A stretch of DNA of 35,851 nucleotides from a virus (lineage: Duplodnaviria; Heunggongvirae; Uroviricota; Caudoviricetes): IMG/VR virus record IMGVR_UViG_2909288124_000002; one strand, written 5' to 3'. A program made the position numbers and the translations under genes. Below are positions 1,263 through 35,851 of the stretch, piece after piece; within the stretch, counting starts at the first letter, position 1, and every line of letters begins with the position of its first letter. The notes under the pieces are model-generated. The model saw only the letters and a program-made list of their open reading frames with translations. It searched no databases and had not been told where the DNA came from.

Positions 1263-1317
1263 TGGAGCACCTCAAAAACACCATCATACACTAAATCAGT
1301 AAGTTGGCAGCATCACC

Positions 1318-2366: not shown

Positions 2367-2389
2367 CGACAGACCAGAAGCGGGAAGCC

Positions 2390-3223: not shown

Positions 3224-3249
3224 GTGTTGTATCTAATCGTGGGGGCAGG

Positions 3250-6887: not shown

Positions 6888-6894
6888 ATTCACC

Positions 6895-12407: not shown

Positions 12408-12411
12408 GGGA

Positions 12412-13439: not shown

Positions 13440-15997
13440 CGTCCACCTCCGGAGAACAGGCCACCATCACGCATCTGTGTCTGAATTTCATCACGGGCAC
13501 CCTTGCGGGCCATGTCATACACCGCCTTCAGAGCAGCCGGACCTATCTGCCCGTTCGTGCCGTCGTTGTTAATCACCACATGGTTATTCTGCTCAAACGT
13601 CCCGGACGCCTGCGACCGGCTGTCTGCCATGCTGCCCGGTGTACCGACATAACCGCCGGTGGCATAGCCGCGCATCAGCCGGTAAAGATTCCCCACGCCA
13701 ATCCGGCTGGTTGCCTCCTTCGTGAAGACAAACTCACCACGGTGAACAATCCCCGCTGGCTCATATTTGCCGCCGGTTCCCGTAAATCCTCCGGTTGCAA
13801 AATGGAATTTCGCCGCAGCGGCCTGAATGGCTGTACCGCCTGACGCGGATGCGCCGCCACCAACACCCCCGCCAATGGCGCTGCCGATACTCCCGACAAT
13901 CCCCACCATTGCCTGCTTAAGCAGAATTTCTGTCATCATGGACAGCACGGAACGGGTGAAGCTGCGCCAGTTCTGCTCACTGCCGGTCAGCATAGCTGCC
14001 ATATTCTGTGCAATACCATCAAAGGTCTGCGTGGCTGCACTTTTTACCTGCGACATACTGTCCGTGGCGCTCTCTTCCCACTCACTCCAGCCGGACTTCA
14101 GGCCTGCCATCCAGTTCCCGCGAAGCTGGTCTTCAGCCGCCCAGGTCTTTTTCTGCTCTGACATGACGTTATTCAGCGCCAGCGGATTATCGCCATACTG
14201 TTCCTTCAGGCGCTGTTCCGTGGCTTCCCGTTCTGCCTGCCGGTCAGTCAGCCCCCGGCTTTTCGCATCAATGGCGGCCCGTTTTGCCCGTTGCTGCTGT
14301 GCGAATTTATCCGCCTGCTGCGCCAGCGCGTTCAGGCGCTCCTGATACGTAACCTTGTCGCCAAGTGCAGCCAGCTGGCGTTTGTACTCCAGCGTCTCAT
14401 CTTTATGCGCCAGCAGGGATTTCTCCTGTGCAGACAGCTGGCGACGTTGCGCCGCCTCCTCCAGTACCGCGAACTGACTCTCCGCCTTCCACAAATCCCG
14501 GCGCTGCTGGCTGATTTTCTCATTTGCTCCGGCATGCTTCTCCAGCGTCCGGAGTTCTGCCTGAAGCGTCAGCAGGGCAGCATGAGCACTGTCTTCCTGA
14601 CGATCGCCCGCAGACACCTTCACGCCGGACTGTTTCGGCTTTTTCAGCGTCGCTTCATAATCCTTTTTCGCCGCCGCCATCAGCGTGTTGTAATCCGCCT
14701 GCAGGATTTTCCCGTCTTTCAGTGCCTTGTTCAGTTCTTCCTGACGGGCGGTATATTTCTCCAGCGGCGTCTGCAGCCGTTCGTAAGCCTTCTGCGCCTC
14801 TTCGGTATATTTCAGCCGTGACGCTTCGGTATCGCTCTGCTGCTGCGCATTTTTGTCCTGTTGAGTCTGCTGCTCAGCCTTCTTTCGGGCGGCTTCAAGC
14901 GCAAGACGGGCCTTTTCACGATCATCCCAGTAACGCGCCCGCGCTTCATCGTTAACAAAATAATCATCCTTGCGCAGATTCCAGATGTCGTCTGCTTTCT
15001 TAAACGCAGCCTCTGCCTTAATCAGCATCTCCTGCGCGGTATCAGGACGACCAATATCCAGCACCGCATCCCACATGGATTTGAATGCCCGCGCAGTCCT
15101 GTCTGCCCAGGTCTCCAGCGTGCCCATGTTCTCTTTCAGGCGGCGGGTCTGGTCATCAAACCCTTTCGTTGCGGCCTCGTTCGCCGCCTGCAATGCCCCG
15201 GCTTCATCGCCGGAACGCTGCAACTGAGCAACATACGCAATCTGCTCCGCCGTCACGTTATGGAACTGGCGTGCCATCGCCGTCAGCCCCGACGTCGGGT
15301 CTGTGGTCAGCTTCCCGAAGGCTTCAGCGACCTTGTCCACCTCCACGCCGGATGCAGAGGAGAAACGCGCCACACTCTGGCTGATGGACGCAATCTGAGC
15401 CTCACCGCTTACCCCCGCCTTAACCAGTGCGCTGAGTGACTCGCTGGTCTGGTTAAACGTCAGCCCTGCCGCCTGCCCGGCTCTGGACAGGACCAGCATA
15501 CGATCTGCCGTCAGTCCCGCCTGATTGCCGGAAAGGACCAGCGTTTTGTTGAAATCGGACAGGGTTGAGTTGCCCTGATACCAGGCATACGCCAGCGCAC
15601 CGGTCGCCACCGCCAGCGAGGTGGCCCCCACCATCGGCAGGGTGATCGCACCGGCAAGCCCCCTGAACATGGGGATCATCCCGCCGAAGGAGTCCTTCAC
15701 CTGCCCCCCCTGTTGCAGCAGGATCAGCCACGGACTTTGCCCGCCTGCAAGCTGCGTGGCCACGTCGGTGAACTGTGCAGGCAGCATACGCATGGCGGCT
15801 TTATACTGCCCGACGGAAATCCCCGCTTTCTGTGCAGCCAGCGCCTGTCGGCTCAGCGACTGTTCAACGACTGCCGCTGTTTTTTTCGCATCACTTTCCG
15901 TACCGGAAAAATGACGCCTGACTCTGGCCATCTGCTCGTCAAATCTGGCCGCATCCAGACTCAAATCAACGACCAGATCGCCTACCGGTTCAGCCAT
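13436..15997 (-). CDS. H: Tail tape measure protein H (853 aa)
   Basis: 853-aa ORF MAEPVGDLVVDLSLDAARFDEQMARVRRHF... with coiled-coil rich centre; same length and position as lambda H. Confidence 0.93.
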   Translation of the reverse strand: MAEPVGDLVVDLSLDAARFDEQMARVRRHFSGTESDAKKTAAVVEQSLSRQALAAQKAGISVGQYKAAMRMLPAQFTDVATQLAGGQSPWLILLQQGGQVKDSFGGMIPMFRGLAGAITLPMVGATSLAVATGALAYAWYQGNSTLSDFNKTLVLSGNQAGLTADRMLVLSRAGQAAGLTFNQTSESLSALVKAGVSGEAQIASISQSVARFSSASGVEVDKVAEAFGKLTTDPTSGLTAMARQFHNVTAEQIAYVAQLQRSGDEAGALQAANEAATKGFDDQTRRLKENMGTLETWADRTARAFKSMWDAVLDIGRPDTAQEMLIKAEAAFKKADDIWNLRKDDYFVNDEARARYWDDREKARLALEAARKKAEQQTQQDKNAQQQSDTEASRLKYTEEAQKAYERLQTPLEKYTARQEELNKALKDGKILQADYNTLMAAAKKDYEATLKKPKQSGVKVSAGDRQEDSAHAALLTLQAELRTLEKHAGANEKISQQRRDLWKAESQFAVLEEAAQRRQLSAQEKSLLAHKDETLEYKRQLAALGDKVTYQERLNALAQQADKFAQQQRAKRAAIDAKSRGLTDRQAEREATEQRLKEQYGDNPLALNNVMSEQKKTWAAEDQLRGNWMAGLKSGWSEWEESATDSMSQVKSAATQTFDGIAQNMAAMLTGSEQNWRSFTRSVLSMMTEILLKQAMVGIVGSIGSAIGGGVGGGASASGGTAIQAAAAKFHFATGGFTGTGGKYEPAGIVHRGEFVFTKEATSRIGVGNLYRLMRGYATGGYVGTPGSMADSRSQASGTFEQNNHVVINNDGTNGQIGPAALKAVYDMARKGARDEIQTQMRDGGLFSGGGR

Positions 15998-16828
15998 ACC
16001 GGACTCCTCCTGCGATCCCTTCTGATACTGTCATCAGCATTACGTCATCCTCCGTCATGTCCGCCACATCCGGGGAAGCGGGGATAACTTCATTCCCGTC
16101 CGGGCCAAAGCGGACACCTCCGGCAAGCCCTGCCGCTTTCTGCATCAGCACATCATCTTCAGGCTCTTCGTCAGCCTCGCGCCGGTTCAGCAGACTGAAA
16201 TCCAGCGGATGCATATCCGGATCGCTGAAAAACAGGCTGAGCACGGTGTACGTCAGCCCGGAAAAGTGCATATCCAGCAGAACATCATGAAAATAATGGG
16301 TACTGTAAAAGCGGTGCCAGTCGGCATACTCCGTGGATGACATCCCGGCAAGCATGGCACGCCAGTCGGGTCGCCCCATCTCACGCGCCAGTTTCAGGGC
16401 AAAACTCAGCTCACCGTCGAACACTTTCCCGCAGAAACAGGCTCTGCGGGCCCGGCGTCCTCTGTCTGTTCAGGGGCATTATTCACCACAAACTCATACA
16501 TACCAGACAGCCGGTACACCACGTTTTCAGCATGAGAAATTGCCTCCGTGGGCCAGGTGGTAAGCACTTCCTGCTCAATCTGTTTAACGGCTTCATTCAT
16601 GGACGGCATCTGCGTCTTCTGCGGATGGTTATGCCACAGGGACATCGCCACCAGAAACGCGCCGGTTCTGATGGCGTCTTCCACAGTAAACTTCCGGTTG
16701 CTGTCTGACTCCGCCTGTTCTGCCTGCCGTTTCATCAGGGCGAGATGCTCAATGCGCTGCAGGGCTGACAGTTCAGAAAGCGTGACGGTCACACCGTTAT
16801 GTTCAAATGATTCGGTTTTCAGGAACAT
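15990..16828 (-). CDS. T: Tail assembly chaperone G-T fusion made by programmed -1 ribosomal frameshift
   Basis: T frame (15990..16424, MFDGELSFALKLAREMGRPDW...) overlaps the end of G in the -1 frame; slippery heptamer GGGAAAG on the minus strand at 16424-16430. Confidence 0.85.
16406..16828 (-). CDS. G: Tail assembly chaperone G (140 aa)
   Basis: ORF MFLKTESFEHNGVTVTLSELSALQRIEHLALMKRQ... matches lambda G. Confidence 0.93.
   Translation of the reverse strand: MFLKTESFEHNGVTVTLSELSALQRIEHLALMKRQAEQAESDSNRKFTVEDAIRTGAFLVAMSLWHNHPQKTQMPSMNEAVKQIEQEVLTTWPTEAISHAENVVYRLSGMYEFVVNNAPEQTEDAGPAEPVSAGKCSTVS
16424..16430 (-). promoter_or_regulatory. G/T -1 programmed frameshift slippery sequence G GGA AAG
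   Basis: Plus-strand CTTTCCC at 16424-16430 is the reverse complement of GGGAAAG, located 18 nt before the G stop codon. Confidence 0.8.
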
Positions 16829-16843: not shown

Positions 16844-17584
16844 TTAACTGGCGGTGACGGTAATTTCTGCAACCGCAGCAAACTCACCATTACCGGATAC
16901 AACCGGAATGTTGACCTTGCCTGCAGCAACGCCGTTCACGGTGATGGTCATACCACTGACCGACACGGTGGCTTTTGTTTTATCCGCAGACACCGCACGA
17001 AAGCTCTTGTCGGTTACGCCCTCCGGCTGGAAGGCCACGGTCAGCGTGGTGCTCTGCCCTTTCACCACCGAGGTGCTGGCAGGCGTCACGGTCATGCCGG
17101 TTGCCGCTGTTACCGTGCTGCGATCTTCTGCCATCGACGGACGTCCCACATTGGTGACTTTCACCGTGCGGGTGATCACTTCCTTCGCCGTCACCGCCTT
17201 ACCGATACTGCTGACCCAGCCACGGAACACATCGACCGTGCCGTTCGGGAAGCGGATTTTATAGGCACGGGTATCGCCTTCATTAAACCACGCCAGCAGC
17301 GCCTGCTGCCCCTGCTCTCCGGGCATCCACGCCAGCGTGAAGCTGGTATCTCCGGCAGATTTCTGCCCCTGCCCGGTCGCAGTCCAGTCTGCATCTTCAT
17401 CATCGAGATAGCTGTCGTCATAGGACTCAGCGGTCAGTTCGCCGGGCGTCAGGTCTTTAACTTTTGCCAGACGCGACCAGTCAACGTCTGAAAGCGGATT
17501 CGCATAAGGGTCACCGCTCCCCTTATAAACCCACAGGGTGGTCCCGGCACCTTTCACCGGCATTGTAGGATTTGGTACAGGCAT
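16844..17584 (-). CDS. V: Major tail tube protein V (246 aa)
   Basis: From [30 protein letters not shown]...; C-terminal Ig-like region ...[18 protein letters not shown]. The ORF track begins 10 codons upstream. Confidence 0.92.
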
Positions 17585-17591: not shown

Positions 17592-17987
17592 TCACATTTC
17601 ATAGGTAATGACATAAGTCAGATCGGCTGAACTCCACAGGCCCGCATCATCGTCGCGCCGGTAGTCATAGCCGCTGGCCACCATACTGGTGATCAAATCT
17701 GACAGTGCCGGGATATCGCTCATCACCGGATAAATCCGGGACTCCATCCACGCATCCAGCTCTGAATCCGGCACCTGAGCAGGCAGGAAAACTTCGATAT
17801 GCAGCTCCGCCTGCCAGGTATCGCTGTCCAGCTCTTCGCCCGTGTATTCAGCGCCGGTGAGATAAACGGCAACTGCCGGAAAATCCGCCTCATCAAAAAC
17901 AGCGGGGCGACCATCAAAAAACGTCGCCCCGGTGTCATGCTTCTCCAGTGCATCCAGTACGGCTGCACGGAGTTCAGTATGTTTCAT
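17592..17987 (-). CDS. U: Tail terminator protein U (131 aa)
   Basis: [36 protein letters not shown]... matches lambda U. Confidence 0.93.
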
Positions 17988-18562
17988 CGCTTTATTACCA
18001 TCCTCAGTTGATGCTGCAGCGCATAGCCCAGCTCTTTCGGAAGACGTTCACGCCGTATCCGCTCAATATTTTGTTTAAACGCCGTGGTCAGCGGCACCGC
18101 CATCGGGATTTTCACCACATCAATGGGGTAACGGTTTTTCCCGGCCACACGCTGCATGACATGCCACCGGCCATTTTTCAGTTGCTGAATAAACGCGCCG
18201 GGAATACGACGGTTACCCACCACAAGCACGCTGCCGCCACCTTTCAGGGATGAACGCTGCCCCTTTTTACGACGCCTGCGGCGCGAAAGGACAACCCGCG
18301 CATTACGCAGCTTGATTACGGGCAAATCCCCCCGGTTAACTTTGATTCTGGCCTGCGGATTTTTGACCGTGGCCCTTTTCAGCCTGGCCCTTTCCTTTAC
18401 CAGTTTCCGGCGTACCTTTGTCTCACGGGCAACCTGTGACGCCGACTGCGATATCGCGGATGAAGCAACGCGGTTAATGGCCATTGCGGCGGCACCAGGC
18501 ACCGCCGTTTTGCTGATACGGCTGAGGTTTTCAACGGCCTGCTCAAGACCTTTTATGGCCAT
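17984..18562 (-). CDS. Z: Tail completion protein Z (192 aa)
   Basis: ORF MAIKGLEQAVENLSRISKTAVPGAAAMAINRVASSAISQ... matches lambda Z. Confidence 0.92.
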   Translation of the reverse strand: MAIKGLEQAVENLSRISKTAVPGAAAMAINRVASSAISQSASQVARETKVRRKLVKERARLKRATVKNPQARIKVNRGDLPVIKLRNARVVLSRRRRRKKGQRSSLKGGGSVLVVGNRRIPGAFIQQLKNGRWHVMQRVAGKNRYPIDVVKIPMAVPLTTAFKQNIERIRRERLPKELGYALQHQLRMVIKR

Positions 18563-18573: not shown

Positions 18574-18927
18574 TCAGCGGCGACGGTTAACGGCAGGCGG
18601 TACGCCCCGTCCAAGCCAGAGATGACAACTTCCGCCATCATCCGGCGAAACCCGATCTACCCAGAAATTTTCCTCACCGATGGTCAGCGTGTCTCCACGC
18701 CGCAGCTGCCGCACCTCATCAGTCCGGACAAACAGGGACGGGCTGGAGCCTTCAACGCGCACGCCCTGTCCGGCATAGCTGATATTTTCAGGATCATCAA
18801 AAACACCACGTATCACAGCACCGGACTGCTCACCGGATGTCATGGTGGCTGACGTTCCCATGTACCCGCGTATCGTTTCATCGGCGCGGGCAATGGCAGC
18901 ATCGAACAGGTTATCGAAATCAGCCAC
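18574..18927 (-). CDS. FII: Head-tail connector protein FII (117 aa)
   Basis: ORF MADFDNLFDAAIARADETIRGYMGTSATMTSGEQSG... matches lambda FII. Confidence 0.92.
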   Translation of the reverse strand: MADFDNLFDAAIARADETIRGYMGTSATMTSGEQSGAVIRGVFDDPENISYAGQGVRVEGSSPSLFVRTDEVRQLRRGDTLTIGEENFWVDRVSPDDGGSCHLWLGRGVPPAVNRRR

Positions 18928-18938: not shown

Positions 18939-19334
18939 TTATTGCATTCTGGCCAGGCCGCGCTCTGTCATTTCAGCTGCCACACCGGCAGAGACACGGA
19001 ACGCCGTTCCCGGCAGCACAAATGCCACAGCCTCATCCCGCGTGGCGTGAAGTGCATCAGTATGCAGCGTCACCAGTGCCACAACCGTGACCAGATCAGC
19101 CGTATCAGTCACGGTATCCGGCTGCGCTGATACCACCTCATTTTCATGTCCGGTCAGCGCATTTTCCGGGCTGACAGATGTGTCCTGACCAGCAGCGTCA
19201 TCCGTGTCATCAAGCTCCTCTTCCAGCTCTGCCACACGGAGTGCCAGTTCTTCTTTCGTCCCCGTCAGGCTGACATCACGGTTCAGTTGCTCACCCAGCA
19301 CCTGAAGACGGGCAATCAGTTCATCTTTCGTCAT
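18939..19334 (-). CDS. FI: DNA packaging protein FI
   Basis: From MTKDELIARLQVLGEQLNRDVSLTGTKEELALRVAELEEELDD...; the ORF track begins 13 codons upstream. Confidence 0.88.
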   Translation of the reverse strand: MTKDELIARLQVLGEQLNRDVSLTGTKEELALRVAELEEELDDTDDAAGQDTSVSPENALTGHENEVVSAQPDTVTDTADLVTVVALVTLHTDALHATRDEAVAFVLPGTAFRVSAGVAAEMTERGLARMQ

Positions 19335-19375: not shown

Positions 19376-20401
19376 TTACGCCAGTTGTACGGACACGAAC
19401 GCATCAGGGTCAGCCAGCAGCATCAGCGGTGCTGACTGAATCATGGTGAACTCACGCGCCGGATCGCCGGTGGTCACCCAGTTTTTCGGGTAGCGGGCAG
19501 AGGCGTTAATACCTTCGCGCTGTGCGTCCGCATCCTGAATGCAGCCATAGGTGCGCAGACCGCGTGCCTGAGTGTTCCCCAGCACCATCGTGTTGTCCGG
19601 CAGGAAGTTCTTTTTGACGTCGTTTTCCACGTACTGTCCGGAATACACGACGATCGCCGTATCGCCATACATCCCCTTATAGGACACCGCTTCGCCCAGG
19701 TCTTTTACCGCTGTCTCCAGCTCGGAATTAGAGCCGCGACGGGTATCCAGCTTCTCCCTGACGGCTTTGAAGGAACGGAACAGCGCCCAGCCTTTCGGAT
19801 CAAACACGATGATATTCACCACACCGCTGGCGTTCAGCGCGTAGGCTTCGATATCGTCGGTCGGGTCATACGTGGACTTGTCACGCTTGCTCCACTCCGT
19901 ACCGCCGGACTGCGTGATGTTGTTCGCCACACTGCGGCCCATATCCACTTCAACCGGAGCGAAGGCTTCACCGGTCATGGTATATTTGCCCTTAAGCACG
20001 GCAGAAACGGCCTGCATCTCTTCGACCTGAGCAATGGCCAGCTCTTCGTCTCGCATGTTCTGCAGGATGATGCGACGGCGGCGGTAAGCCGGGTCCGCCA
20101 GATTCTGCGGATCTTCATCCGGCAGGCGACGCAGGGTCATCTGCGGATTCACTTCATGCTTCGGCTTGACATATCCCGGCGTAAATTCAGAGGTGGAGCC
20201 GCCACGGGAACGGATAACCTCACCGGAAACAATCGGCGAAACGTACAGCGCCATGTTTACCAGTCCCGGAATTTGTGAGAGATAGACTTTCTCCGTGGTG
20301 AAGGGATAGCTCTCACGGAAAAAGAGACGCAGAAACAGCGGATCAAACTTAAATTTCTGCTCATTTGCCGCCAGCAGCTGGGCGGTTGTGTACATCGACA
20401 T
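19376..20401 (-). CDS. E: Major capsid protein E (341 aa)
   Basis: From MSMYTTAQLLAANEQKFKFDPLFLRLFFRESYPF...; HK97-fold capsid protein in the lambda position. Confidence 0.93.
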   Translation of the reverse strand: MSMYTTAQLLAANEQKFKFDPLFLRLFFRESYPFTTEKVYLSQIPGLVNMALYVSPIVSGEVIRSRGGSTSEFTPGYVKPKHEVNPQMTLRRLPDEDPQNLADPAYRRRRIILQNMRDEELAIAQVEEMQAVSAVLKGKYTMTGEAFAPVEVDMGRSVANNITQSGGTEWSKRDKSTYDPTDDIEAYALNASGVVNIIVFDPKGWALFRSFKAVREKLDTRRGSNSELETAVKDLGEAVSYKGMYGDTAIVVYSGQYVENDVKKNFLPDNTMVLGNTQARGLRTYGCIQDADAQREGINASARYPKNWVTTGDPAREFTMIQSAPLMLLADPDAFVSVQLA

Positions 20402-20456: not shown

Positions 20457-20789
20457 TTAAACGATGCTGATTGCCGTTCCGGCAAACGCGGTCCGTTTTT
20501 TCGTCTCGTCGCTGGCAGCCTCCGGCCAGAGCACATCCTCATAACGGAACGTGCCGGACTTGTAGAACGTCAGCGTGGTGCTGGTCTGGTCAGCATCAAC
20601 CGCCAGAATGCCAACGGCAGCACCGTCGGTGGTGCCATCCCACGCAACCAGCTTACGGGTGGAGGTATCCAGCATCAGCGGGGTCATTGCAGGCGCTTTC
20701 GCACTCAATCCGCCGGGCGCGGTTGCCGTATGTGCCGGGTCACTGTTGCCCAGCGGCTGGTAATGGGTAAAGGTTTCTTTGCTCGTCAT
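20457..20789 (-). CDS. D: Capsid decoration protein D (110 aa)
   Basis: From [40 protein letters not shown]... matches lambda gpD. Confidence 0.93.
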
Positions 20790-20798: not shown

Positions 20799-21404
20799 TT
20801 ACACTGGTGTGTTCAGCAAATCGTTAACGGCATCAGATGCCGGGTTACCTGCAGCCAGCGGTGCCGGTGCCCCCTGCATCAGACGATCCAGCGCAGTGTC
20901 ACTGCGCGCCTGTGCACTCTGTGGTGCAGCTGCCAGAATGCGGCGGGCCGTTTCCACGGTCATACCGGGGGTTTCTGCCAGCACGCGGGCCTGTTCTTCG
21001 CGTCCGTGAGCCTCCTCACAGTTGAGGATCCCCATAATGCGGCTGTTTTCTGCCGCAACCGCAGCGGTGATCTGCGCGTTCACGTCCGGCTGCGCCGCGC
21101 TGGCGTTTTCGCCCTCCGTCGCTGGCACCACGTCAGTAACGTCAGCCTGCGAAGCAGTGGCTGAAACAGTTGTTGATTGAGTCTCTTTGGTCATTCGCCC
21201 TCCTGAGAGACGGGATTTACGTGCATCCAGTGCATCACGCATAACGGTGATCGCATCGGTGCTGTTGACAAGTTCATCAGCCAGTCCGGCATCAATGGCC
21301 TCCTGACCGCTGTACACTGCAGCCTCGGTATCCAGCACAGCCTGCACGGACAGGCCGGTATATGTCGACACCTTCTGCGCAAACATCTGGCGGGTTGCAT
21401 CCAT
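20799..21404 (-). CDS. nu3: Scaffolding protein Nu3, in-frame internal start within C (201 aa)
   Basis: Internal Met MDATRQMFAQKVSTYTGLSVQ... gives the C-terminal 201 aa of the C frame, as for lambda Nu3. Confidence 0.7.
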   Translation of the reverse strand: MDATRQMFAQKVSTYTGLSVQAVLDTEAAVYSGQEAIDAGLADELVNSTDAITVMRDALDARKSRLSGGRMTKETQSTTVSATASQADVTDVVPATEGENASAAQPDVNAQITAAVAAENSRIMGILNCEEAHGREEQARVLAETPGMTVETARRILAAAPQSAQARSDTALDRLMQGAPAPLAAGNPASDAVNDLLNTPV

Positions 21405-22098
21405 CCGGGACTGCAGTGTCTCCCGGACGTCATCCGGAAGATGGCTGTAGGGGTTGCCATCCACCTTATGGCTGCCGCTGTAAATCAGCGTGATTTCCAC
21501 GCCCTGTTTCTCCAGTGCAGCGCCGTAATTACTGTGAGCCATCATGACGCCGATGGAGCCTGTCCGGGCGGTCTGCGTGACCAGACGCCGGGAGGCGGCA
21601 CTGGCAAGCAGCTGACCTGCGCTGCAGTTCATGTCATTGGCTAGCGCCCATACCGGCTTTATGTCACGCACACGGGCGATGATGTCAGCGCAGTCAAATG
21701 CTCCCGCCACCATTCCGCCCGGTGTGTCCATATCGAGCAGAATGCCGTCCACCATCGGGTCGCTGGCAGCCTGTTGCAGACGGGCGATAATGCCGTTGTA
21801 ACCGGTCATCCCCGAGTACGGCTGCAGCGCCCGCGTCCGGCTGACCAGCGTGCCGGACACCGGCAGCACGGCGATGCCGTTCATGACCTGATAACTGCGG
21901 GCCTGTCGTGGTCCGTCATCATCACCGGATAACGCCAGCGCCGCGGGTGCCTCTCCGGCAGTCAGGCTGTCGCCGGATACTGCATCCGTCAGGCGGCTGA
22001 TCCCAAGCTGGCCTGCAAGCGCACAAAAGAAAACCCGCGCATAGGCGGGTTCAAGCATCAGCGGCTCATTAAAAGCCATGCTGGCAATATGCGGGAGA

Positions 22099-22118
<20 letters not shown>
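20799..22118 (-). CDS. C: Capsid assembly protease C (GTG start, overlaps end of B by 20 nt)
   Basis: ORF ...VTAELRNLPHIASMAFNEPLMLEPAYARVFF... matches lambda C (S49/ClpP-like). Start placed at GTG 22116-22118 to reproduce the lambda B/C overlap. Confidence 0.88.
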
Positions 22119-25799
<3,681 letters not shown>

Positions 25800-25825
<26 letters not shown>

Positions 25826-26345
25826 TCAGCAACCCCGGTATCAGTTCATCCAGCGCGGCTGCTTTGTTCATGGCTTTGATGATATCCCGTTTCAGGAAAT
25901 CAACATGTCGGTTTTCCAGTTCCGGAAAACGCCGCTGCACCGACAGGGGGATCCCGTCGAGAATACTGGCAATTTCACCTGCGATCCGCGACAGCACGAA
26001 AGTACAGAATGCGGTTTCCACCACTTCAGCGGAGTCTCTGGCATTTTTCAGCTCCTGTGCGTCGGCCTGCGCACGCGTAAGTCGATGGCGTTCGTACTCA
26101 ATAGTCCCTGGCTGGAGATCTGTCTCGCTGGCCTGCCGCAGTTCTTCAACTTCCCGGCGCAGCTTTTCGTTCTCAATTTCAGCATCCCTTTCGGCATACC
26201 ATCTTATAACGGCGGCAGAGTCATAAAGCACCTCATTACCCTTGCCACCGCCTCGCAGAACGGGCATTCCCTGTTCCTGCCAGTTCTGAATGGTACGGAT
26301 ACTCGCACCGAAAATGTCAGCCAGCTGCTTTTTGTTGACTTCCAT
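25800..26345 (-). CDS. nu1: Terminase small subunit Nu1 (181 aa)
   Basis: ORF MEVNKKQLADIFGASIRTIQNWQEQGMPVLRGGGKGNEVLYD... matches lambda Nu1; overlaps A by 26 nt as in lambda. Confidence 0.94.
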
Positions 26346-26733
26346 TGTTCATTCCACGGCCAAAAACAGAGAAAGGAAACGACAGAGGCCCAAAAGCTCG
26401 TTTTCAGCACCTGTCGTTTCCTTTCTTTTCAGGGGGTATTTTAAATAAAAACATTAAGTTACGACGAAGAAGAACGGAAATGCCTTAAACCGGAAAATTT
26501 TCATAAATAGCGAAAACCCGCGAGGTCGCCGCCCCGTAACCTGTCGGATCACCGGAAAGGACCCGTAAAGTGGTAATGATTATCATCTACATATCACAAC
26601 GTGCGTGGAGGCCATCAAACCACGTCAAATAATCAATTATGACGCAGGTATCGTATTAATTGATCTGCATCAACTTAACGTAAAAACAACTTCAGACAAT
26701 ACAAATCAGCGACACTGAATACGGGGCAACCTC
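26346..26733 (-). other. Lambda-type cos region (cosB, cosN, cosQ); cosN 12-nt cohesive end AGGTCGCCGCCC at 26523-26534 (reverse complement of GGGCGGCGACCT)
   Basis: Sequence upstream of Nu1 reads as the reverse complement of the lambda left end (GGGCGGCGACCTCGCGGGTTTTCGCTATTTATGAAAATTTTCCGG...) joined to the lambda right end (...CGGTGATCCGACAGGTTACG); recalled from memory. Confidence 0.85.
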
Positions 26734-26967
26734 ATGTCAACGAAGAACAGAACCCGCAGAACAACAACCCGCAACATCCGCTTTCCTAACCAAATGATTG
26801 AACAAATTAACATCGCTCTTGAGCAAAAAGGGTCCGGGAATTTCTCAGCCTGGGTCATTGAAGCCTGCCGCCGGAGACTGTGCTCAGAAAAAAGAGTTTC
26901 TTCTGAAGCAAACAAAGAAAAGAGTGACATTACTGAATTGCTCAGAAAACAGGTCAGACCAGATTGA
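26734..26967 (+). CDS. ynfO: Small prophage protein (YnfO-like, 77 aa)
   Basis: ORF MSTKNRTRRTTTRNIRFPNQMIEQINIALEQKGSGNFSAWVIEACRRRL...; position between cos/Nu1 and ydfO as in Qin. Symbol from memory of gene order. Confidence 0.6.
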   Translation: MSTKNRTRRTTTRNIRFPNQMIEQINIALEQKGSGNFSAWVIEACRRRLCSEKRVSSEANKEKSDITELLRKQVRPD

Positions 26968-27024
26968 AGCAATTTAGATAATCGTGCAGACTACGCCCCC
27001 TCATATCACATGGAAGGTTTATCT

Positions 27025-27435
27025 ATGGATCAGGTAGTCATTTTTAAACAAATATTTGATAAAGTTCGAAACGATTTAAACTATCAATGGTTTTATTCTG
27101 AGCTAAAACGTCACAATGTCTCACATTACATTTACTATTTAGCCACAGAGAATGTTCATATTGTATTAAAAAATGATAATACAGTGTTATTAAAGGGCCT
27201 AAAAAACATTGTGTCTGTCAAATTTTCAAAGGATAGGCATCTTATAGAAACGACCTCTAATAAGCTGAAATCCAGAGAGATCACATTTCAGGAATACAGA
27301 AGAAACCTTGCTAAAGCAGGAGTTTTTCGGTGGGTTACAAATATCCACGAACAAAAAAGATATTACTATACCTTTGATAATTCATTACTATTTACTGAAA
27401 GCATCCAGAAAACTACACAGATCTTACCACGCTAA
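27025..27435 (+). CDS. ydfO: DUF1398-family prophage protein YdfO (136 aa)
   Basis: From [43 protein letters not shown]...; the ORF track begins 5 codons upstream. Confidence 0.8.
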
Positions 27436-27586
27436 ACCATAACGTCCGGCTTCTCTCACTCCTGAGCCGGACTGCATTGGTTTAATAAAAACCATCAACA
27501 ATTGTGATTTAGATATTCGGAACCATTCAAATATAACAAAACCCCGTAAAAACGAGGTTTATGGATAAATTTTATTATTGAATACA

Positions 27587-27760
27587 TCAGATTAAATTAA
27601 TCTTGACATCATAGCTTTCAAGACCCGTCATTTTTTCCCGTGCGGTAAACTGAATACTGGTAACTTCTTTCCCGGTCTTTTTCTTAAGTTCAATAATTTT
27701 TTTTGTTATATATTCAGAAATATCTGCTTCTGCTTTTGTTTTTAAGTTTTCAATATTCAT
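27587..27760 (-). CDS. gnsB: GnsA/GnsB-family small protein (57 aa)
   Basis: Hand-translated minus-strand ORF MNIENLKTKAEADISEYITKKIIELKKKTGKEVTSIQFTAREKMTGLESYDVKINLI, preceded by AGAGGAA; below the ORF-track size cutoff. Confidence 0.75.
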   Translation of the reverse strand: MNIENLKTKAEADISEYITKKIIELKKKTGKEVTSIQFTAREKMTGLESYDVKINLI

Positions 27761-27931
27761 CATTTCCTCTTTTAGTCTGTTATGACTTTCCAGTTACACA
27801 GTAAGTCGATTATATGGTGCAAACGTGTAAAAGATAAGATGAAACATCGCAATAATCAACATACGATAGTCTAAATTTTACACAAACAGACAAAGAGAAT
27901 TTTCCTGAATTATCAATGCAATAGCATCAAA

Positions 27932-28162
27932 TCAACTCAAGAGCCTTATTGCTGCTTCCAGAATTTCTTCTGAAGTAACATGTCGATCCGCGGCTACATA
28001 AATGACTTTATGATCTCCGGTCAGAGATGGAAACCCTGCGGCCATTACAGTAAGGTGTGTTTTTTCGCCATTTGGATATTCACGCATGATGGTGTTAACT
28101 CCAGTCATCGCTGGCACTACCACTGCTGGTTCAGAGTTAAAAAAAACTATGATTTTTTTCAT
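27932..28162 (-). CDS. Hypothetical small protein (about 76 aa)
   Basis: ORF from MKKIIVFFNSEPAVVVPAMTGVNTIMREYPNGEKTHLTVMAAGFP...; family not recognised; start uncertain (ORF track begins at 28204). Confidence 0.45.
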   Translation of the reverse strand: MKKIIVFFNSEPAVVVPAMTGVNTIMREYPNGEKTHLTVMAAGFPSLTGDHKVIYVAADRHVTSEEILEAAIRLLS

Positions 28163-28433
28163 GATGTTACCGTAGTATGTGAGTATCCATCGAATAGACA
28201 CCAAGCAAAAAAGCTCCCGAAGGAGCCTTCATTTTCACTTTTTTAAATCCAACGACAGACGGCTGGCATTTAAGTATTGTGAAATATTATCAAATGTAAT
28301 CATCATTGATTTACAAAAGATACATTTTGCCCCGAAAGGATTCATGTCAGAAACATCAAAAGATGATGTTCTATACTGGGAACCATGACAACACGGGCAT
28401 CTAAAGTGAATATGGTTTGTAATATTGTCTACC

Positions 28434-28646
28434 TCAAAGCGCCACTACATGAACAGCGGCAGGACCTTTAGGTCCGTTCTCAATACCAAATTCAACTTCC
28501 TGATTCTCAGTTAATGTTTTGAAATCGTTGCTCTGAATTGCTGAGAAATGGACAAACACATCTTTGCTGCCATCTTTCGGCGTGATGAAACCAAAACCTT
28601 TTTCAGGGTTAAACCATTTCACTAAACCAGTCATTTTGTTAGACAT
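28434..28646 (-). CDS. cspI: Cold shock protein CspI (70 aa)
   Basis: [73 protein letters not shown] with RNP1/RNP2 cold-shock domain motifs. Confidence 0.9.
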
Positions 28647-29008
28647 AATTATTACCTTTTGAAGAAATTAGCCCTTGGGCAGAATGGTCCGAAAAAAAAT
28701 ATCAGAGAGAAAAACCAACAAGGAAATCTCAAGAGGTACAAATAATAAAATTATAACAATGACTGCTTCAGATAAATTTGTAACAAACCAGAACACCATT
28801 AACGCATGATTAACCACCCATAGCAAGGATTACTTTTGTAAAGAAAAACACAGCAATGAAAGAATAGCTTTATTTATTAATAAAACGTGTCATTCTGATT
28901 AAGACCTTTTATCTTACCCTTAAGATTTCAGGAATTTTGGCTCATGGAAGAGTCCTTTTTATTTAAATTTTACATTCCGCGATGTAAATGTTCCGATTTA
29001 ATATTACC

Positions 29009-30032
<1,024 letters not shown>

Positions 30033-30036
<4 letters not shown>

Positions 30037-30344
30037 AGATATTTATGATGAGGACGCTCGTGCTTATTGGCAGGATTTTCAATCTTAAAGGAGTATTGAT
30101 GCTGCAGATAAGACTCAACTTTTTCTGACAATTTTTCTGCTACTTCCAGGAAGACTTGCCGGACGCTCCTTCTGGCTGCTGCCTCATAAAACTCCAGCGC
30201 AGCTCCTTCAACACGGTCCATGGCGACATCCAGGTCAAAAATTTCACCGTCAAAGCGTTCTTTGTCCTGTAAGGCTACAGTTACCGTAACTTTATTCTCA
30301 AAATTACGGACTCCTTTCACAACCAGTTCATAGTCTTGAGTCAT
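30033..30344 (-). CDS. ydfR: YdfR (DUF1327) lysis-cassette-associated protein (103 aa)
   Basis: ORF MTQDYELVVKGVRNFENKVTVTVALQDKERFDGEIFDLDVAMD...; located between holin and endolysin. Confidence 0.8.
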
Positions 30345-30348
30345 TGGA

Positions 30349-30564
30349 TTACTCTCCTCTCGCAGCCTTACGCCTGTCTTCTTTAATCTTGAAATAAAGA
30401 TTTGTCAGATACGTCAGCAGGCCAAAAACCAGGCTACCCAGCACACCGATTGCAGCCCACTGTGACGGAGTTACTTTATCGAGTAACTGCAATGCCCAGA
30501 AACCAGCATTACCCGCCGATGTGCCATAGGCAACACCTGTTGTTAACTTATCCATTGATTTCAT
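30349..30564 (-). CDS. essQ: Pinholin, phage 21 S-type class II holin (71 aa, dual-start MKSMDK)
   Basis: From [71 protein letters not shown]; two TMDs; GAGGA Shine-Dalgarno before the ATG at 30564. The ORF track extends to 30639. Confidence 0.85.
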
Positions 30565-30783
30565 ATCCTCACCCCGATGTACACGGATGGTGCAATATGT
30601 TTGAAAAGATCGGAGTCTACGGGGTAGTTTTGACAGCACACGTTGTTCTCAACGGCGCTAAAAAAACATACACATTAAAAATGTGGGTAATTATTTTGAA
30701 AGAAAGTCATATATAAAATAATAATACGAGAAATGTTTTCATATTTAGTGTACTGTATACGGCCATTTATACAGGAAAAGCCT

Positions 30784-30954
30784 ATGTCAGAACGTAAAAA
30801 CTCAAAATCACGCCGTAATTATCTCGTTAAATGTTCCTGCCCAAACTGCACCCAAGAGTCAGAACACAGTTTTTCAAGAGTACAAAAAGGTGCCCTTTTG
30901 ATCTGCCCTCATTGCAACAAAGTATTCCAGACAAATCTTAAAGCTGTAGCCTGA
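30784..30954 (+). CDS. Putative small zinc-ribbon protein (56 aa), unknown function
   Basis: ORF MSERKNSKSRRNYLVKCSCPNCTQESEHSFSRVQKGALLICPHCNKVFQTNLKAVA with CPNC...CPHC pairs; AGGAAAAG Shine-Dalgarno 4 nt before the ATG; followed by a hairpin terminator. Confidence 0.55.
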   Translation: MSERKNSKSRRNYLVKCSCPNCTQESEHSFSRVQKGALLICPHCNKVFQTNLKAVA

Positions 30955-31012
30955 TTGATTTTATTAGTAACAAGTATTTTTTATATTTTAATAATATATT
31001 TAAAGCAGATAA

Positions 31013-31040
31013 TAAAAAACCCGCCTGAGCGGGTTTGAGA
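31013..31040. terminator. Bidirectional intrinsic terminator (cspB 3' end and small plus-strand ORF)
   Basis: Hairpin AAACCCGC-CTGA-GCGGGTTT flanked by an A-run on one side and a T-rich tract on the other; the minus-strand reading gives stem then TTTTTTATTATC. Confidence 0.65.
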
Positions 31041-31317
31041 TTGTGGTGCTTTTTGTGGGAGTCATCCACTTACGCACTTTGTTTTGCCATGCCAGCAGTT
31101 AGCTTCTGCTGTAAAACTATTCATGCAGCAAACCTGCACTTCACCACAATGGTTAGCATACTTTTCCTGATTAAGATTTTGCCAAATATGCTAGCCATTG
31201 TTTCATGTATTGGACCTCCTTACTTTTTATTAAAGAGATCCAATATTCACTACTCTGTCCGTATCTCTACTCAGGCATCAGCCTTCTTCGTTATCGTATA
31301 CAGACGAGCGATGAATT

Positions 31318-31533
31318 TTAATCAGTAATGATGACATTTGCTGCTGCAGGACCTTTAGCACCACTCTCTATAGAGAAGGTAACCTTTTGACCTTCAAATA
31401 AGGTTCGATAATTATCATTCTGAATCGCAGAAAAATGCACAAACACATCTTTACTACCATCAACAGGAGAAATAAAGCCGAAACCTTTATCAGCGTTAAA
31501 CCATTTTACTAAACCAGTCATTTTATTTGACAT
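31318..31533 (-). CDS. cspB: Cold shock protein CspB (71 aa)
   Basis: [74 protein letters not shown]. Confidence 0.92.
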
Positions 31534-31833
31534 TCTACATTCCTTAACTTGAGCCTTTCGGCATAAATGGTTTGCATAACAGAAACGACTTCGTACTTAA
31601 TTGGAGAGACTCAAAGAAGGAATAAGTGAATAACACCTGAAATGAGAACTGCTTTAGTAAACTACTTCGTATATCGTCTGTTCTTCAAACCGACGCAATC
31701 ATTAACGCATAGTTGAACATATGAAGCAATGTTTATTTTAGACATCCAGCCATCTTCAACCCCATCAAAAAACTATAGCTTTCTTCAGGAACGTGTGTAT
31801 AGTGCGCCAAGTTATCAGTATTAAGGAATTTTT

Positions 31834-32046
31834 TTGTCCCGTAAAATGACAGGAATTGTCAAAACCTTTGACGGCAAAAGCGGCAAGGGTCTTATCACCC
31901 CATCCGATGGTCGTATCGATGTCCAGCTTCATGTTTCAGCGCTCAATCTCCGCGATGCAGAAGAAATTACCACCGGATTACGCGTGGAATTTTGCCGGAT
32001 AAATGGTCTGCGTGGCCCTTCAGCTGCCAATGTTTACCTTTCATGA
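31834..32046 (+). CDS. cspF: Cold shock protein homolog CspF (70 aa)
   Basis: [73 protein letters not shown]. Confidence 0.9.
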
Positions 32047-32467
32047 GCTATATTAAAGCTTTAATTTCAGGCCCCATCGGATCACACATGGAGAGTTTTT
32101 ATGAATAACCCCGTCTGTCTTGATGACTGGTTGATTGGCTTTAAAAGCTTATGCTGTACTTTGGCCGTAATAGCTCTGCTAATAATATAATAAGCAGACT
32201 CATTGTGTTTAGGGACATTGTACTGGAAGAAAACATTTTAAACATCAGGCAAATAACCAAGTCACCAGCTAAATAATAAGTTAACAGACATGAGTCCCGG
32301 GATGAGATTCAACATTACCATTGCCCCATTTAAAGCACAAAACCCGCTCATCAGCAGGTTTTCTACTTTTTCTTAACGTCGGGTATACAAAGCCCATCGT
32401 TGAAAAAATTTTATCCATATTTTTTGAAAAATGCAAACATCATGTCGCCATCTTCAGCAAAAATCAT

Positions 32468-33220
32468 TTATCTCGTCACCTTCCTCAATTGCGCTTCCGC
32501 GTATGCTTCTTCCTGCCAGCACTTTGTTACCAGTTTACCAATGACGTCCGCATACCCCTTATACCACTGATAATCGGTCAGGTCTGGTACCAGCTTCTGG
32601 ACATGACGTCGTGCCAGCGTGGTCGGTAAACGACTAAACCGGTTTCCATTACAACGCCCACAAATCTTATATACCGGTACGCCATGAAACCGGGTTCTTT
32701 TTTCATCCAGAACAATCCCTTTACCCTTACACCCTCTGCACGCTGTGCTGGCTTCGCCCTTACCATGGCAATGCTGACATAGTTCCTTCACCCATTCTTC
32801 CTTGATTACAGATTCCCCGCGTCTGTAGTGTTTCACCACTTCGCGCAATACATTATAAAATCCCGTACCTGAACAATGCTCACAGCGAGCCTTACTTGCC
32901 GCAGACCTGGAGTAATCAGCAAAGGCAAAACTCACGAGGTAAGGAATAATCTGTAACCGGATTTCTTCACTCAATTTGTTCAATGTCGGGTTATCCAGTG
33001 CCATCGCGTAATTTAGCAGGCCTTCAATCGCAAACTGAGGGTCCTGAACACCAACTTTTGCCAGAAATAAGGCCAACCCAAGTGGTGCTTTCGACTGCAC
33101 CATCCCCTGCGCTGCCATTACATCCGTAATTGTTAAACAACCGGTGCCTGTCGCTGGAGCGTCATCGCTCAATTTTGGAGATTTTGGGGAGTAATATTTT
33201 GGTAAGGCTTCAAGGTTCAT
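32468..33220 (-). CDS. quuQ: Late gene antiterminator Q (phage 21/82-type, 250 aa)
   Basis: From MNLEALPKYYSPKSPKLSDDAP...; Cys-rich zinc-binding region CEHCSGTG...CQHCHGKGEASTACRGCKGKG...CGRCNGN. The ORF track begins 10 codons upstream. Confidence 0.85.
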   Translation of the reverse strand: MNLEALPKYYSPKSPKLSDDAPATGTGCLTITDVMAAQGMVQSKAPLGLALFLAKVGVQDPQFAIEGLLNYAMALDNPTLNKLSEEIRLQIIPYLVSFAFADYSRSAASKARCEHCSGTGFYNVLREVVKHYRRGESVIKEEWVKELCQHCHGKGEASTACRGCKGKGIVLDEKRTRFHGVPVYKICGRCNGNRFSRLPTTLARRHVQKLVPDLTDYQWYKGYADVIGKLVTKCWQEEAYAEAQLRKVTR

Positions 33221-33233
33221 GCTCGTTCTCCAC

Positions 33234-34283
33234 TTACACCAGTACGCCAATTGCCAGCGCGCGATCGATAAAACGAAATATCAGCTCCAGTTGGGAGCCA
33301 TACTTATCTTCAAATGCCACTGTATCCGTATGCAGCTCGTTGTGATGCTTTCTGCACAAAGGCAACACAAAGAGATCATGTGCTTTTGTTCCCATTCCGC
33401 CCTGCCCGTGACCAATCAGATGATGCGGATCGTCGGCTGGCATACCGCAGCAAGCACACGGCTGTGTCTTAACCCAACGTGTGTATTTCTCCTTAACCCA
33501 GCGGCGACGTTTAGGCAGCTTCATGAAAGATTCCGGAGACTCTGGATCAACGGTGATGCTTACCACCGTCTTTTCCTGTGGTGATTTTTGTTGCTGGTGG
33601 GCGTAAGGCAACGGTGCAAGATTTTTTGTGCGTTGTTTCAATATGCTGGTGGCGGTCTGCTCTCCCGGTACGATGTCGCTTTCGCGGTACACCGAGCAGA
33701 TTTTTTCCGCTGGTAATCCCAGCGAACGACGCGATACAGCCTCAGGTAGTGCATCCACCACCTGATTGCAGACCGCCCACCAGGATAATTCAGCCAAAGA
33801 TAATTCCCGCTCCTGCGTACCGCTTATTGCGTGACGGATGACGTCAATCACCCATGCTGTCAGATTTTGTTGAGCAAGCAGCTCCAGTGATTCCGATGTC
33901 TGGTCACGCAGTTGGTTGTCGCAGTGCCAGCACAACACCATTGCGCCGGTACCATAACGGTGAATGACTGTTTCAGTGTGATGGTAATCGCCATTAGGCC
34001 ACTGGCAGGATGTAACATGACGTAATAGCCAGTCGGACAATGCGCCAACGCCGCCAGCAGCACGAATCACCCGTTCGTTACTAAAAAACGGCAGCAATGT
34101 TTTGTCTTCCGCCAGCGGCTGGCGAACGGCAGGAACGACTCCGGATGGCAGATTACGCATGCTTTTTGGTTCCGGTTCCACCAGCACTCGAGGATTATGA
34201 AATATCTGTATGGATTCACGGCCCGGCTTAAGGACCACCAGCCCAAGCTCAGGCACCAGAACAGGTCTAAGTAATACCCGCAC
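33234..34283 (-). CDS. ydfU: YdfU-like DUF968 protein with C-terminal HNH-like zinc-finger motif
   Basis: ORF ...CACCGMPADDPHHLIGHGQGGMGTKAHDLFVLPLCRKHHNELH... Start uncertain: GTG at 34283 directly follows the upstream ORF stop (TAA-C-GTG); the ORF track extends to 34322. Confidence 0.75.
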   Translation of the reverse strand: MRVLLRPVLVPELGLVVLKPGRESIQIFHNPRVLVEPEPKSMRNLPSGVVPAVRQPLAEDKTLLPFFSNERVIRAAGGVGALSDWLLRHVTSCQWPNGDYHHTETVIHRYGTGAMVLCWHCDNQLRDQTSESLELLAQQNLTAWVIDVIRHAISGTQERELSLAELSWWAVCNQVVDALPEAVSRRSLGLPAEKICSVYRESDIVPGEQTATSILKQRTKNLAPLPYAHQQQKSPQEKTVVSITVDPESPESFMKLPKRRRWVKEKYTRWVKTQPCACCGMPADDPHHLIGHGQGGMGTKAHDLFVLPLCRKHHNELHTDTVAFEDKYGSQLELIFRFIDRALAIGVLV

Positions 34284-34284
34284 G

Positions 34285-34563
34285 TTACCTCCAGATCCGT
34301 TGCTGGAAAGTGCGGGACGCACGTGGTGGGCGTTCGGAATAAGGCAGCCTGACAGAGATTATCCAGTGCCGATAGTCGAGACTGAGAGCTTTCTTAACCT
34401 CGAACCCGCGCCTGCGGTAAGAATGAATCAGCCATTCGGCCTGTTCTGCAGTGCATGGAGGGTGCTGGAACCATTCAGACTTGAATGCGTGAGAATACCG
34501 CCCGTGCGTGCAGGCAAGAACGGGCGAATTATCAGAATTGTAATATTTTGCGTTGCGTGCCAT
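34285..34563 (-). CDS. Hypothetical protein (92 aa), apparently translationally coupled to ydfU
   Basis: ORF MARNAKYYNSDNSPVLACTHGRYSHAFKSEWFQHPPCTAEQAEWLIHSYRRRGFEV...; stop abuts the candidate ydfU start; family not recognised. Confidence 0.5.
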   Translation of the reverse strand: MARNAKYYNSDNSPVLACTHGRYSHAFKSEWFQHPPCTAEQAEWLIHSYRRRGFEVKKALSLDYRHWIISVRLPYSERPPRASRTFQQRIWR

Positions 34564-34629
34564 CGGTTTTCTCCGGTGGCACGGTGTTACTCAGCGGGAG
34601 TTCAGCCCCGCGCAAGATTGTAGATGAGT

Positions 34630-34881
34630 TTATTCTCCTGAAAAAGCAGAAAAGCCAGCTTTTATTCCGATCTCTTTCAATGCCTGTAATGAAGTGACAA
34701 ACTCACCTTCGCGCAAGATAAATCCGTCCGTGACCCGAGCATCCACAAAATTAATTAACGCAGCCCCATTCTTTCGCAAACACATAATGCGGTAATGACT
34801 AACAAGATTTCCATTTTCAACGCACACAGCATAGAGGCCATCTTCACAAAAAATTTTACGCAGTTCTTCGATGTTCATCAT
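34630..34881 (-). CDS. rem: Rem protein (83 aa), Qin prophage-type
   Basis: ORF MMNIEELRKIFCEDGLYAVCVENGNLVSHYRIMCLRKNGAALINFVDARVTDGFILREGEFVTSLQALKEIGIKAGFSAFSGE. Confidence 0.8.
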   Translation of the reverse strand: MMNIEELRKIFCEDGLYAVCVENGNLVSHYRIMCLRKNGAALINFVDARVTDGFILREGEFVTSLQALKEIGIKAGFSAFSGE

Positions 34882-35005
34882 CAGAATCCTTCCGGATAAT
34901 TAGCTCTCCCCTTTAAGGGACCATCCCTCTTATCCCTGCGCGCTACTTAAGTATTTTTGATTCTATTCCGGCACCGTCCAGAACTTCAAACGCATTGAAA
35001 ATAAA

Positions 35006-35032
35006 AACAAAAACCCGCCGAAGCGGGTTAAG
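35006..35032 (-). terminator. Intrinsic terminator at the end of the relB-relE-hokD operon
   Basis: Minus-strand hairpin AACCCGC-TTCG-GCGGGTT followed by TTTTTGTTTTTATTTTC. Confidence 0.7.
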
Positions 35033-35097
35033 TGCGGGTGCGTTGAGGATGCCTGCCACATCAGAGGTGGCGAGGGATTTCTCCCCCGCCGGGTCTC

Positions 35098-35253
35098 TTA
35101 CTCCTCAGGTTCGTAAGCTGTGAAGACAGCGACCTCCGTCTGGCCGGTTCGGATTCGTACCTCGCAGAGGTCTTTCCTCGTTACCAGTGCCGTCACTATG
35201 ACGGTTAAACAGATGACGATCAGGGCGATTAACATCGCCTTTTGCTGCTTCAT
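35098..35253 (-). CDS. hokD: Hok-family small membrane toxin HokD/RelF (51 aa)
   Basis: Hand-translated minus-strand ORF MKQQKAMLIALIVICLTVIVTALVTRKDLCEVRIRTGQTEVAVFTAYEPEE; below the ORF-track cutoff. Confidence 0.9.
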   Translation of the reverse strand: MKQQKAMLIALIVICLTVIVTALVTRKDLCEVRIRTGQTEVAVFTAYEPEE

Positions 35254-35324
35254 AGCCTGCTTCTCCTGTCAACGCAAAGCAGAAGTGTCACCTTCGGTGC
35301 GAAACAGAGATGTCATGCTTTGGT

Positions 35325-35612
35325 TCAGAGAATGCGTTTGACCGCCTCGCTATATACTTCCGAGCGTTCTCTTTTCCCAACAGAAATCACGAAAACGACA
35401 ACTTTCTCGTCTATAACCTGGTATACAAGGCGATAGCCTGAAGACCGGAGCTTAATCTTGTAACAATCAGGCATACCACGGAGCTTGTTTGCTTCAATCC
35501 GGGGTGACTCAAGTACTTCAACCAGCTTCTTTTTCAACTGTTCACGTACCGTCGAGCCCAGCTTTCGCCATTCCTTTAGTGCCCGCTCGTCAAAATCCAG
35601 AAAATACGCCAT
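35325..35612 (-). CDS. relE: RelE mRNA interferase toxin (95 aa)
   Basis: ORF MAYFLDFDERALKEWRKLGSTVREQLKKKLVEVLESPRIEANKLRGMPDCYKIKLRSSGYRLVYQVIDEKVVVFVISVGKRERSEVYSEAVKRIL. Confidence 0.95.
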   Translation of the reverse strand: MAYFLDFDERALKEWRKLGSTVREQLKKKLVEVLESPRIEANKLRGMPDCYKIKLRSSGYRLVYQVIDEKVVVFVISVGKRERSEVYSEAVKRIL

Positions 35613-35851
35613 CAGAGTTCATCCAGCGTCACACGTACTGGCTTAGGATTACGAAGCCGTTCTTTCACTATCTCCACAAGTTCAGCATCTTCATCACTCA
35701 GGAGTGTCTGTTTGAACGGCAAGCGTTCATTGTCAGCGATATACTCGAGCATGAGACGAAGCGCTTCAGAAGGAGTTACACCCATTTTTTCAAGCGCGGC
35801 GTAAGAACGCGCTTTAAGTTCATCGTCAATACGCAGGTTAATGCTACCCAT
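35612..35851 (-). CDS. relB: RelB antitoxin (79 aa); its start codon is the last 3 nt of the window
   Basis: ORF MGSINLRIDDELKARSYAALEKMGVTPSEALRLMLEYIADNERLPFKQTLLSDEDAELVEIVKERLRNPKPVRVTLDEL; overlaps relE by 1 nt. Confidence 0.95.
   Translation of the reverse strand: MGSINLRIDDELKARSYAALEKMGVTPSEALRLMLEYIADNERLPFKQTLLSDEDAELVEIVKERLRNPKPVRVTLDEL

Follow-up and report, generated by a model that had tools for sequence, protein, structure and literature searches.

A lambda-type cos site and its packaging, head and tail genes in a probable undeleted form of the Escherichia coli prophage Qin

The cos site between Nu1 and ynfO

We analysed 35,851 nucleotides of viral DNA (Caudoviricetes; IMG/VR record IMGVR_UViG_2909288124_000002), hereafter called the window, which runs from ydfK (1–234) to relB (35612–35851). 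The interval 26346–26733 is exactly the spacer between the start codon of the terminase small subunit gene Nu1 (26345, minus strand) and that of ynfO (26734, plus strand), and it holds a complete lambda-type cos site. Leftwards of the site, lambda-type packaging, head and tail genes follow on the minus strand, and rightwards lies an arm of Qin-type genes, the names of which were taken from the annotation of relatives. The features are collected in Table 1.

The subsites were mapped by the definitions of the Feiss laboratory (PMC4669245), in which a cos of approximately 200 bp is made up of a 7-bp cosQ, a cosN that gives 12-nt 5' ends, and a 120-bp cosB consisting of R3, I1 (bound by IHF), R2 and R1. 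The 195 bp of the window's cos agree with this length. Alignments were made to the lambda genome (NC_001416, Lambdavirus lambda) taken across its joined ends. Over the interval (~389 nt), the window differs from lambda by seven substitutions and one 1-nt deletion (~98% identity), which in lambda numbering are T48464C, G54A, A73G, T102C, G134A, the deletion of G138, T145G and T176G. T48464C (window 26573) lies 9 nt upstream of cosQ and is private to the window, and the distance from cosQ to cosN is that of lambda. G54A falls in R3 and replaces a G that lambda has at this position of R1, R2 and R3 alike, and the loss of G138 leaves the spacer between R2 and R1 1 nt shorter; the five further substitutions lie in cosB or its flanks, with A73G (26462) just beyond the I1 region. 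From the end of cosB to the Nu1 ATG there are 24 nt, which places the three R elements and the IHF site directly upstream of the small subunit gene. With its cosN 12-mer, its cosQ and its complex cosB, the site is by sequence a lambda-type cos, and the original prediction of an intact site near-identical to lambda in the 12-mer and its flanks is borne out at the level of sequence.

We also considered whether the resemblance could be a chance match of a short motif. The 12-mer GGGCGGCGACCT has a single exact match in the window, and by simple arithmetic ~0.004 exact matches would be expected by chance in 2 × 35.8 kb; a shuffle expectation of 3.3 refers to 12-mer matches with up to two mismatches and is not the relevant control for an exact match. 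Chance is refuted, given that the match is exact, sits inside ~389 nt of ~98% lambda sequence, and stands beside 18.8 kb of collinear homology. A promoter scan around cos found none, and terminator-like matches around cos were within the shuffle expectation.

The two arms of the site differ in their affinities. The cosN-cosB arm (lambda bp 1–200; window 26336–26534) is identical in 199 of 199 positions to both K-12 Qin and PhiR42_1, a deposited phage described below, and several of the cosB changes are shared by PhiR70_1 and two environmental isolates, Kati and Chlobot. The cosQ-side arm (26535–26620) is lambda- and K-12-like, and shows ~10 differences upstream of cosQ when compared with PhiR42_1, PhiR70_1, Kati and Chlobot. 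The site looks like a mosaic boundary, which would fit with cos-stimulated recombination (PMC3945230).

Table 1 Features of the window, with positions on the strand given.
Feature	Position	Strand	Remarks
IS1	550..1317	-	768 bp; 9-bp target duplication GAGTCTCAC; intergenic, ydfK/pinQ
pinQ	1328..1918	+	serine recombinase
ISSen4	2032..3252	+	IS3 family, 1221 bp; flanked by TGGC
tfa	3250..3816	-	tail-fibre assembly; 188 aa = TfaQ residues 1–188, without the last three (ALP)
stf	3816..6893	-	side tail fibre; 1025-aa ORF, intact
lom-type gene	6952..7551	-	Ail/Lom outer-membrane protein; 46% vs lambda Lom
J	7622..11034	-	tail tip / host specificity; split by 1-nt deletion
M, L, K, I	11095..13439	-	tail-tip assembly; all full length
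H	13436..15997	-	tape measure; 853 aa, intact
G and G-T	15990..16828	-	tail chaperones; 100% identical to lambda; slippery heptamer GGGAAAG, 16424–16430
V	16844..17584	-	major tail protein; 100% identical to lambda
U	17592..17987	-	tail terminator; 100% identical to lambda
Z	17984..18562	-	
FII	18574..18927	-	
FI	18939..19334	-	87.9% vs lambda; 3-nt in-frame deletion
E	19376..20401	-	major capsid
D	20457..20789	-	head decoration
C/Nu3	20799..22118	-	protease with nested scaffold; internal ATG kept
B	22099..23700	-	portal
W	23697..23903	-	head-tail joining
A	23900..25825	-	terminase large subunit; 641 aa, 99.4% vs lambda
Nu1	25800..26345	-	terminase small subunit (nohA in Qin nomenclature); 181 aa, three substitutions
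cos (cosQ-cosN-cosB)	26370..26564	-	complete lambda-type site, 195 bp; by alignment to lambda and subsite mapping
cosB R1	26370..26385	-	16/16 vs lambda
cosB R2	26411..26426	-	16/16 vs lambda
cosB I1 region	26444..26461	-	IHF-core-like matches between R3 and R2 (consensus match only); identical to lambda
cosB R3	26471..26486	-	Nu1-binding element AAGGCATTTCCGTTCT; one substitution, lambda G54A
cosN	26523..26534	-	cohesive-end 12-mer GGGCGGCGACCT; 12/12; surrounding 32 nt (26513–26544) identical to lambda
cosQ	26558..26564	-	GGGTCCT, packaging-termination subsite; 7/7, lambda 48473–48479
Qin-type right arm	26734..35851		ynfO, ydfO, gnsB, ynfN, cspI, rzpQ, rrrQ, ydfR, essD/Q, cspB, cspF, Q antiterminator ydfT, ydfU, rem, hokD, relE, relB; 99.92% vs K-12 Qin

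The late operon and its lesions

Read leftwards from 26896 to 8066, the window follows lambda collinearly, and 97.99% of 18,836 aligned columns are identical. The alignment contains three gap openings, namely the 3-nt in-frame deletion in FI, 1 nt in the spacer between L and K, and 1 nt in J. By tblastn of every lambda protein together with the alignment, the genes Nu1, A, W, B, C/Nu3, D, E, FI, FII, Z, U, V, G, T, H, M, L, K, I and J were found in lambda order, all on the minus strand. All products from Nu1 to I are full length and align end to end with their lambda counterparts at 88–100% protein identity (98% for the DNA), with U, V, G, T, M and L at 100% and most others at 96–99.5%. When FI and J are excluded, the 4,932 codons compared differ from those of lambda by 142 synonymous and 53 non-synonymous changes, which is the pattern expected under purifying selection.

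The likeness extends to the fine organisation of the operon, including the layout of cosQ, cosN and cosB, the cohesive ends, the gene overlaps, the C/Nu3 arrangement and the G-T frameshift. The overlaps of Nu1 with A (25800–25825, 26 nt), of B with C (22099–22118, 20 nt) and of K with I (11664–11766, 103 nt, using the classical lambda start for I) all have the lengths first claimed for them. Start codons are those of lambda, and the nested internal ATG of Nu3 and the G-T slippery site are also kept. The GTG starts of A, C, FII and I might be taken for altered start codons; this was rejected, since lambda has the same GTG starts.

Alignment to lambda and to K-12 Qin had been proposed as the check on the gene set from Nu1 to J, and it showed the cos and structural region to be free of rearrangement and of substantial divergence. 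With just three gap openings in 18.8 kb, the alternative of a rearranged or diverged region was rejected.

The differences from lambda are confined to a few places. FI is the sole head gene with a clearly diverged patch (15 substitutions and the one-codon deletion, with neighbouring genes at 97–100%), which suggests a small recombinational replacement. Further downstream the lom-type gene is also diverged, and the window's stf is longer than that of lambda. To the right of cos, the Q gene, the lysis genes and the morons are Qin-type and not lambda-type. The C-terminal 250 aa of J, its receptor-binding end (7625–8374, minus strand), represent a non-lambda allele that is only 58% identical to lambda J, and 98–99% identical to J of PhiR49_1 and of several Stx1a- and Stx2c-converting phages. 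Given this divergence, the receptor specificity is probably not of lambda's LamB type.

Among the morphogenesis genes, J is the one that fails a test of reading-frame intactness, which bears on function and not on homology. A single C is lost near 10408, at about codon 210 (GAAACAG to GAAAAG), and the gene is thereby split into ORFs at 10339–11034 (a 231-aa N-terminal product) and 7622–10378. When the C is restored, a J of 1137 aa results that is identical in 1136 residues to the intact J of strain UC4224. A survey of 5,426 complete E. coli genomes gave 14,349 homologous places, all of them free of the deletion, and a 31-mer that carries it was absent from the species-representative genomes and JGI metagenome contigs searched. 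As it is found nowhere else in the public sequence searched, the deletion would be either very recent or a sequencing error. The predicted J frameshift is therefore real in this sequence, with the caution that it may be a sequencing error.

ISSen4 is inserted just before the stop codon of tfa, and its junction with tfa is private to the window among the representative genomes and complete E. coli genomes searched. IS1 interrupts no gene. IS insertions had been predicted, as had a truncation of Tfa; the latter stands, although it amounts to a loss of three residues only. We also observed a full-length match to the Rfam family IS009 (220.9 bits) inside the tfa coding sequence (3275–3473, minus strand); IS009 is a candidate sRNA family, which would seem to overlap with genes of tail-fibre assembly.

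Probably Qin before the K-12 deletion

From the Nu1/A overlap to relB (25817–35851), the window is 99.92% identical to Qin of K-12 MG1655 (1632277–1652745), and the ydfK-pinQ-tfaQ-stfQ side is 97.5–99.6% identical. The Qin gene complement from ydfK to relBE, including nohA, which is Nu1, is present in K-12 order at 97.5–99.9% identity (compared with NC_000913, 1633072–1645872), and the cosN-cosB arm is likewise shared. In the right arm, matches to the Rfam cspA thermoregulator were observed at 31302–31694 (158.8 bits) and 28407–28792 (112.8 bits), both on the minus strand, in the 5' leaders of cspB and cspI, cold-shock genes carried by the prophage.

In contrast to the window, K-12 lacks positions 4769–25816 (21,048 bp), with an overlap of 2 nt at the junction, and has neither the IS1 nor the ISSen4 insertion. 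The K-12 deletion ends inside stf on one side and 8 nt into gene A (codon 3) on the other, and this junction of A with stf accounts for the aberrant 13-residue foreign C-terminus of K-12 NohA. Judged from these alignments, the window is Qin itself in an undeleted form, and not merely a relative of it. The Qin-like flanks that were originally predicted are upheld, as is the lesser decay; the description as a mosaic relative of Qin is sharpened to Qin before the 21,048-bp deletion. We assign a probability of roughly 90% to the reading that the interval is the cos of a Qin-type lambdoid E. coli prophage, that the adjoining 19 kb on the minus strand are a complete lambda-type packaging, head and tail operon, and that the window represents Qin before the 21-kb deletion of K-12.

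Such elements are common. Of 5,426 complete E. coli genomes, 436 contain at least 80% of the stretch from relB to I, with identities reaching 99.9%, and full-length prophages at the Qin locus (in the records of N12, UC4224, W, KO11FL and a strain labelled DH5alpha) are 99.2–99.9% identical from relB to I. The element is already known in this sense, as an ordinary lambda-like E. coli prophage that is present in public phage and genome records. In UC4224 the prophage lies between ydfJ and rspB and has an intact int and xis, a DicA/DicC region and O; an integration site between ydfJ and rspB, a Qin-type int and DicA/DicC were seen in N12 as well. In the prophage of the window, int, att and the early region fall beyond the stretch analysed. 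The relatives carry private lesions of their own. These are an IS3 in tfa and an H annotated as frameshifted in UC4224, and a frameshifted int in N12, when compared with the J deletion, ISSen4 and IS1 of the window. The differing lesions in UC4224 and N12 suggest independent and ongoing decay of the same prophage by lineage.

A further relative, PhiR42_1 (PV340562.1; 48,668 bp; host E. coli ECOR13), aligns collinearly with the window along all of its length, relB to ydfK (96–98% identity). Its GenBank record describes it as a complete phage and names a propagation host. It differs from the window in that J and Tfa are intact and both IS1 and ISSen4 are missing; its pinQ is intact as well. Positions 3–233 of its record repeat a ydfK-like segment found at 47886–48118 (99.6% identical to positions 1–231 of the window), and this terminal repeat may represent either a duplication that flanks att or a linearisation artefact of the record. 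No publications describing the PhiR phages were found in a literature search.

The window shows the cryptic Qin of K-12 as it was before the 21-kb deletion, with both endpoints of the deletion fixed to the base. It also shows the Qin cos and nohA to be the cos and Nu1 of a packaging system of lambda specificity that is still present in a deposited phage genome. Strains with this element have a lambda cos and terminase that are intact in sequence, as well as 19 kb at 98% homology to lambda, which is of relevance for recombination with lambda vectors and phages and for calls of prophage content in E. coli genomes. Beyond annotation, the finding matters little.

Predicted packaging and the state of the prophage

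By homology with lambda, and with the roles of the cos subsites taken from PMC4669245, Q-dependent late transcription would, upon induction, extend from the lysis cassette, which is Qin-type, through cos and over the genes from Nu1 to J. Nu1 dimers would bind the R3, R2 and R1 elements of cosB, IHF would bend the DNA at I1, and gpA would thereby be positioned to nick cosN 12 nt apart and leave GGGCGGCGACCT as 5' cohesive ends. The DNA would enter the prohead from the Nu1 side, and cosQ together with cosN of the next copy would end packaging. The sequence as given should yield filled heads and tail shafts without a functional tail tip. With the J frameshift no infectious particles would be formed, barring reversion or complementation of the deletion or an error in the sequencing.

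It is possible that the prophage is instead fully functional and inducible. The J frameshift would then be an error of sequencing or assembly, the IS elements would be tolerated, and infectious lambda-like particles with Qin-type immunity would be formed. The absence of the J deletion from every other sequence searched and the near-perfect match of the repaired J to that of UC4224 favour this possibility, as do the intactness of all other late genes, the minimal loss in Tfa, the intergenic position of IS1, the existence of the near-identical deposited phage PhiR42_1, and the intact int and xis of the relative UC4224. On the other hand, the deleted C does not lie in a C homopolymer and would hence not be a read error of the most common type, and the two IS insertions, both private, point to a lineage in which damage is already building up. 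The IS elements also add 2 kb, which brings the genome nearer to the packaging limit. With both IS elements and an early region like that of PhiR42_1, the genome would measure ~50.4–50.7 kb, which is close to the upper packaging limit of lambda. On balance, we regard a fully functional prophage as unlikely.

Similarly doubtful in our estimation is the proposal that the chromosomal cos is live, either through an artefactual J deletion and a plaque-forming Qin-type phage, or through cutting of cos in situ by the prophage's own terminase or by a superinfecting one of lambda specificity. If cos were live and J broken, a site-specific double-strand break would be made, and packaging would start at Nu1 and move past J in the direction of ydfK and ydfJ. 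Cutting in situ could also promote recombination with incoming lambdoid phages or rescue by them.

A different proposal is that cos is conserved in sequence yet impaired, as the relic of a decaying prophage, with G54A in R3, the shorter R2-R1 spacer or T48464C lowering terminase binding or termination. That G54A alters a base invariant in R1, R2 and R3 of lambda, and that T48464C is private to the window, speak for such an impairment. Nonetheless, every cosB change also occurs in the deposited phage PhiR42_1, several of them occur in Kati, Chlobot and PhiR70_1, T48464C falls outside the 7-bp cosQ as defined in PMC4669245, and the terminase genes show the pattern of purifying selection. We therefore consider an impaired cos very improbable. 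The workability of this cos variant would follow from the viability of PhiR42_1, itself taken from the GenBank record.

As for the terminase, the three substitutions of Nu1 relative to lambda (K48R, A75T and L132I) are all common to K-12 NohA and PhiR42_1 over the 148 residues compared, and residues 1–148 are identical between the window and PhiR42_1. As a minor variant of the live-cos proposal, G54A in R3, the 1-nt shorter R2-R1 spacer and Nu1 K48R could represent a slightly shifted packaging sub-specificity of Qin and PhiR42_1. In the small set of sequences compared, R3 in the form CATTTCC (26481, G54A) occurs together with Nu1 R48 in the window, K-12 Qin and PhiR42_1, and lambda and PhiR70_1 have K48 with other forms of R3; this pairing probably reflects linkage by descent and not co-adaptation.
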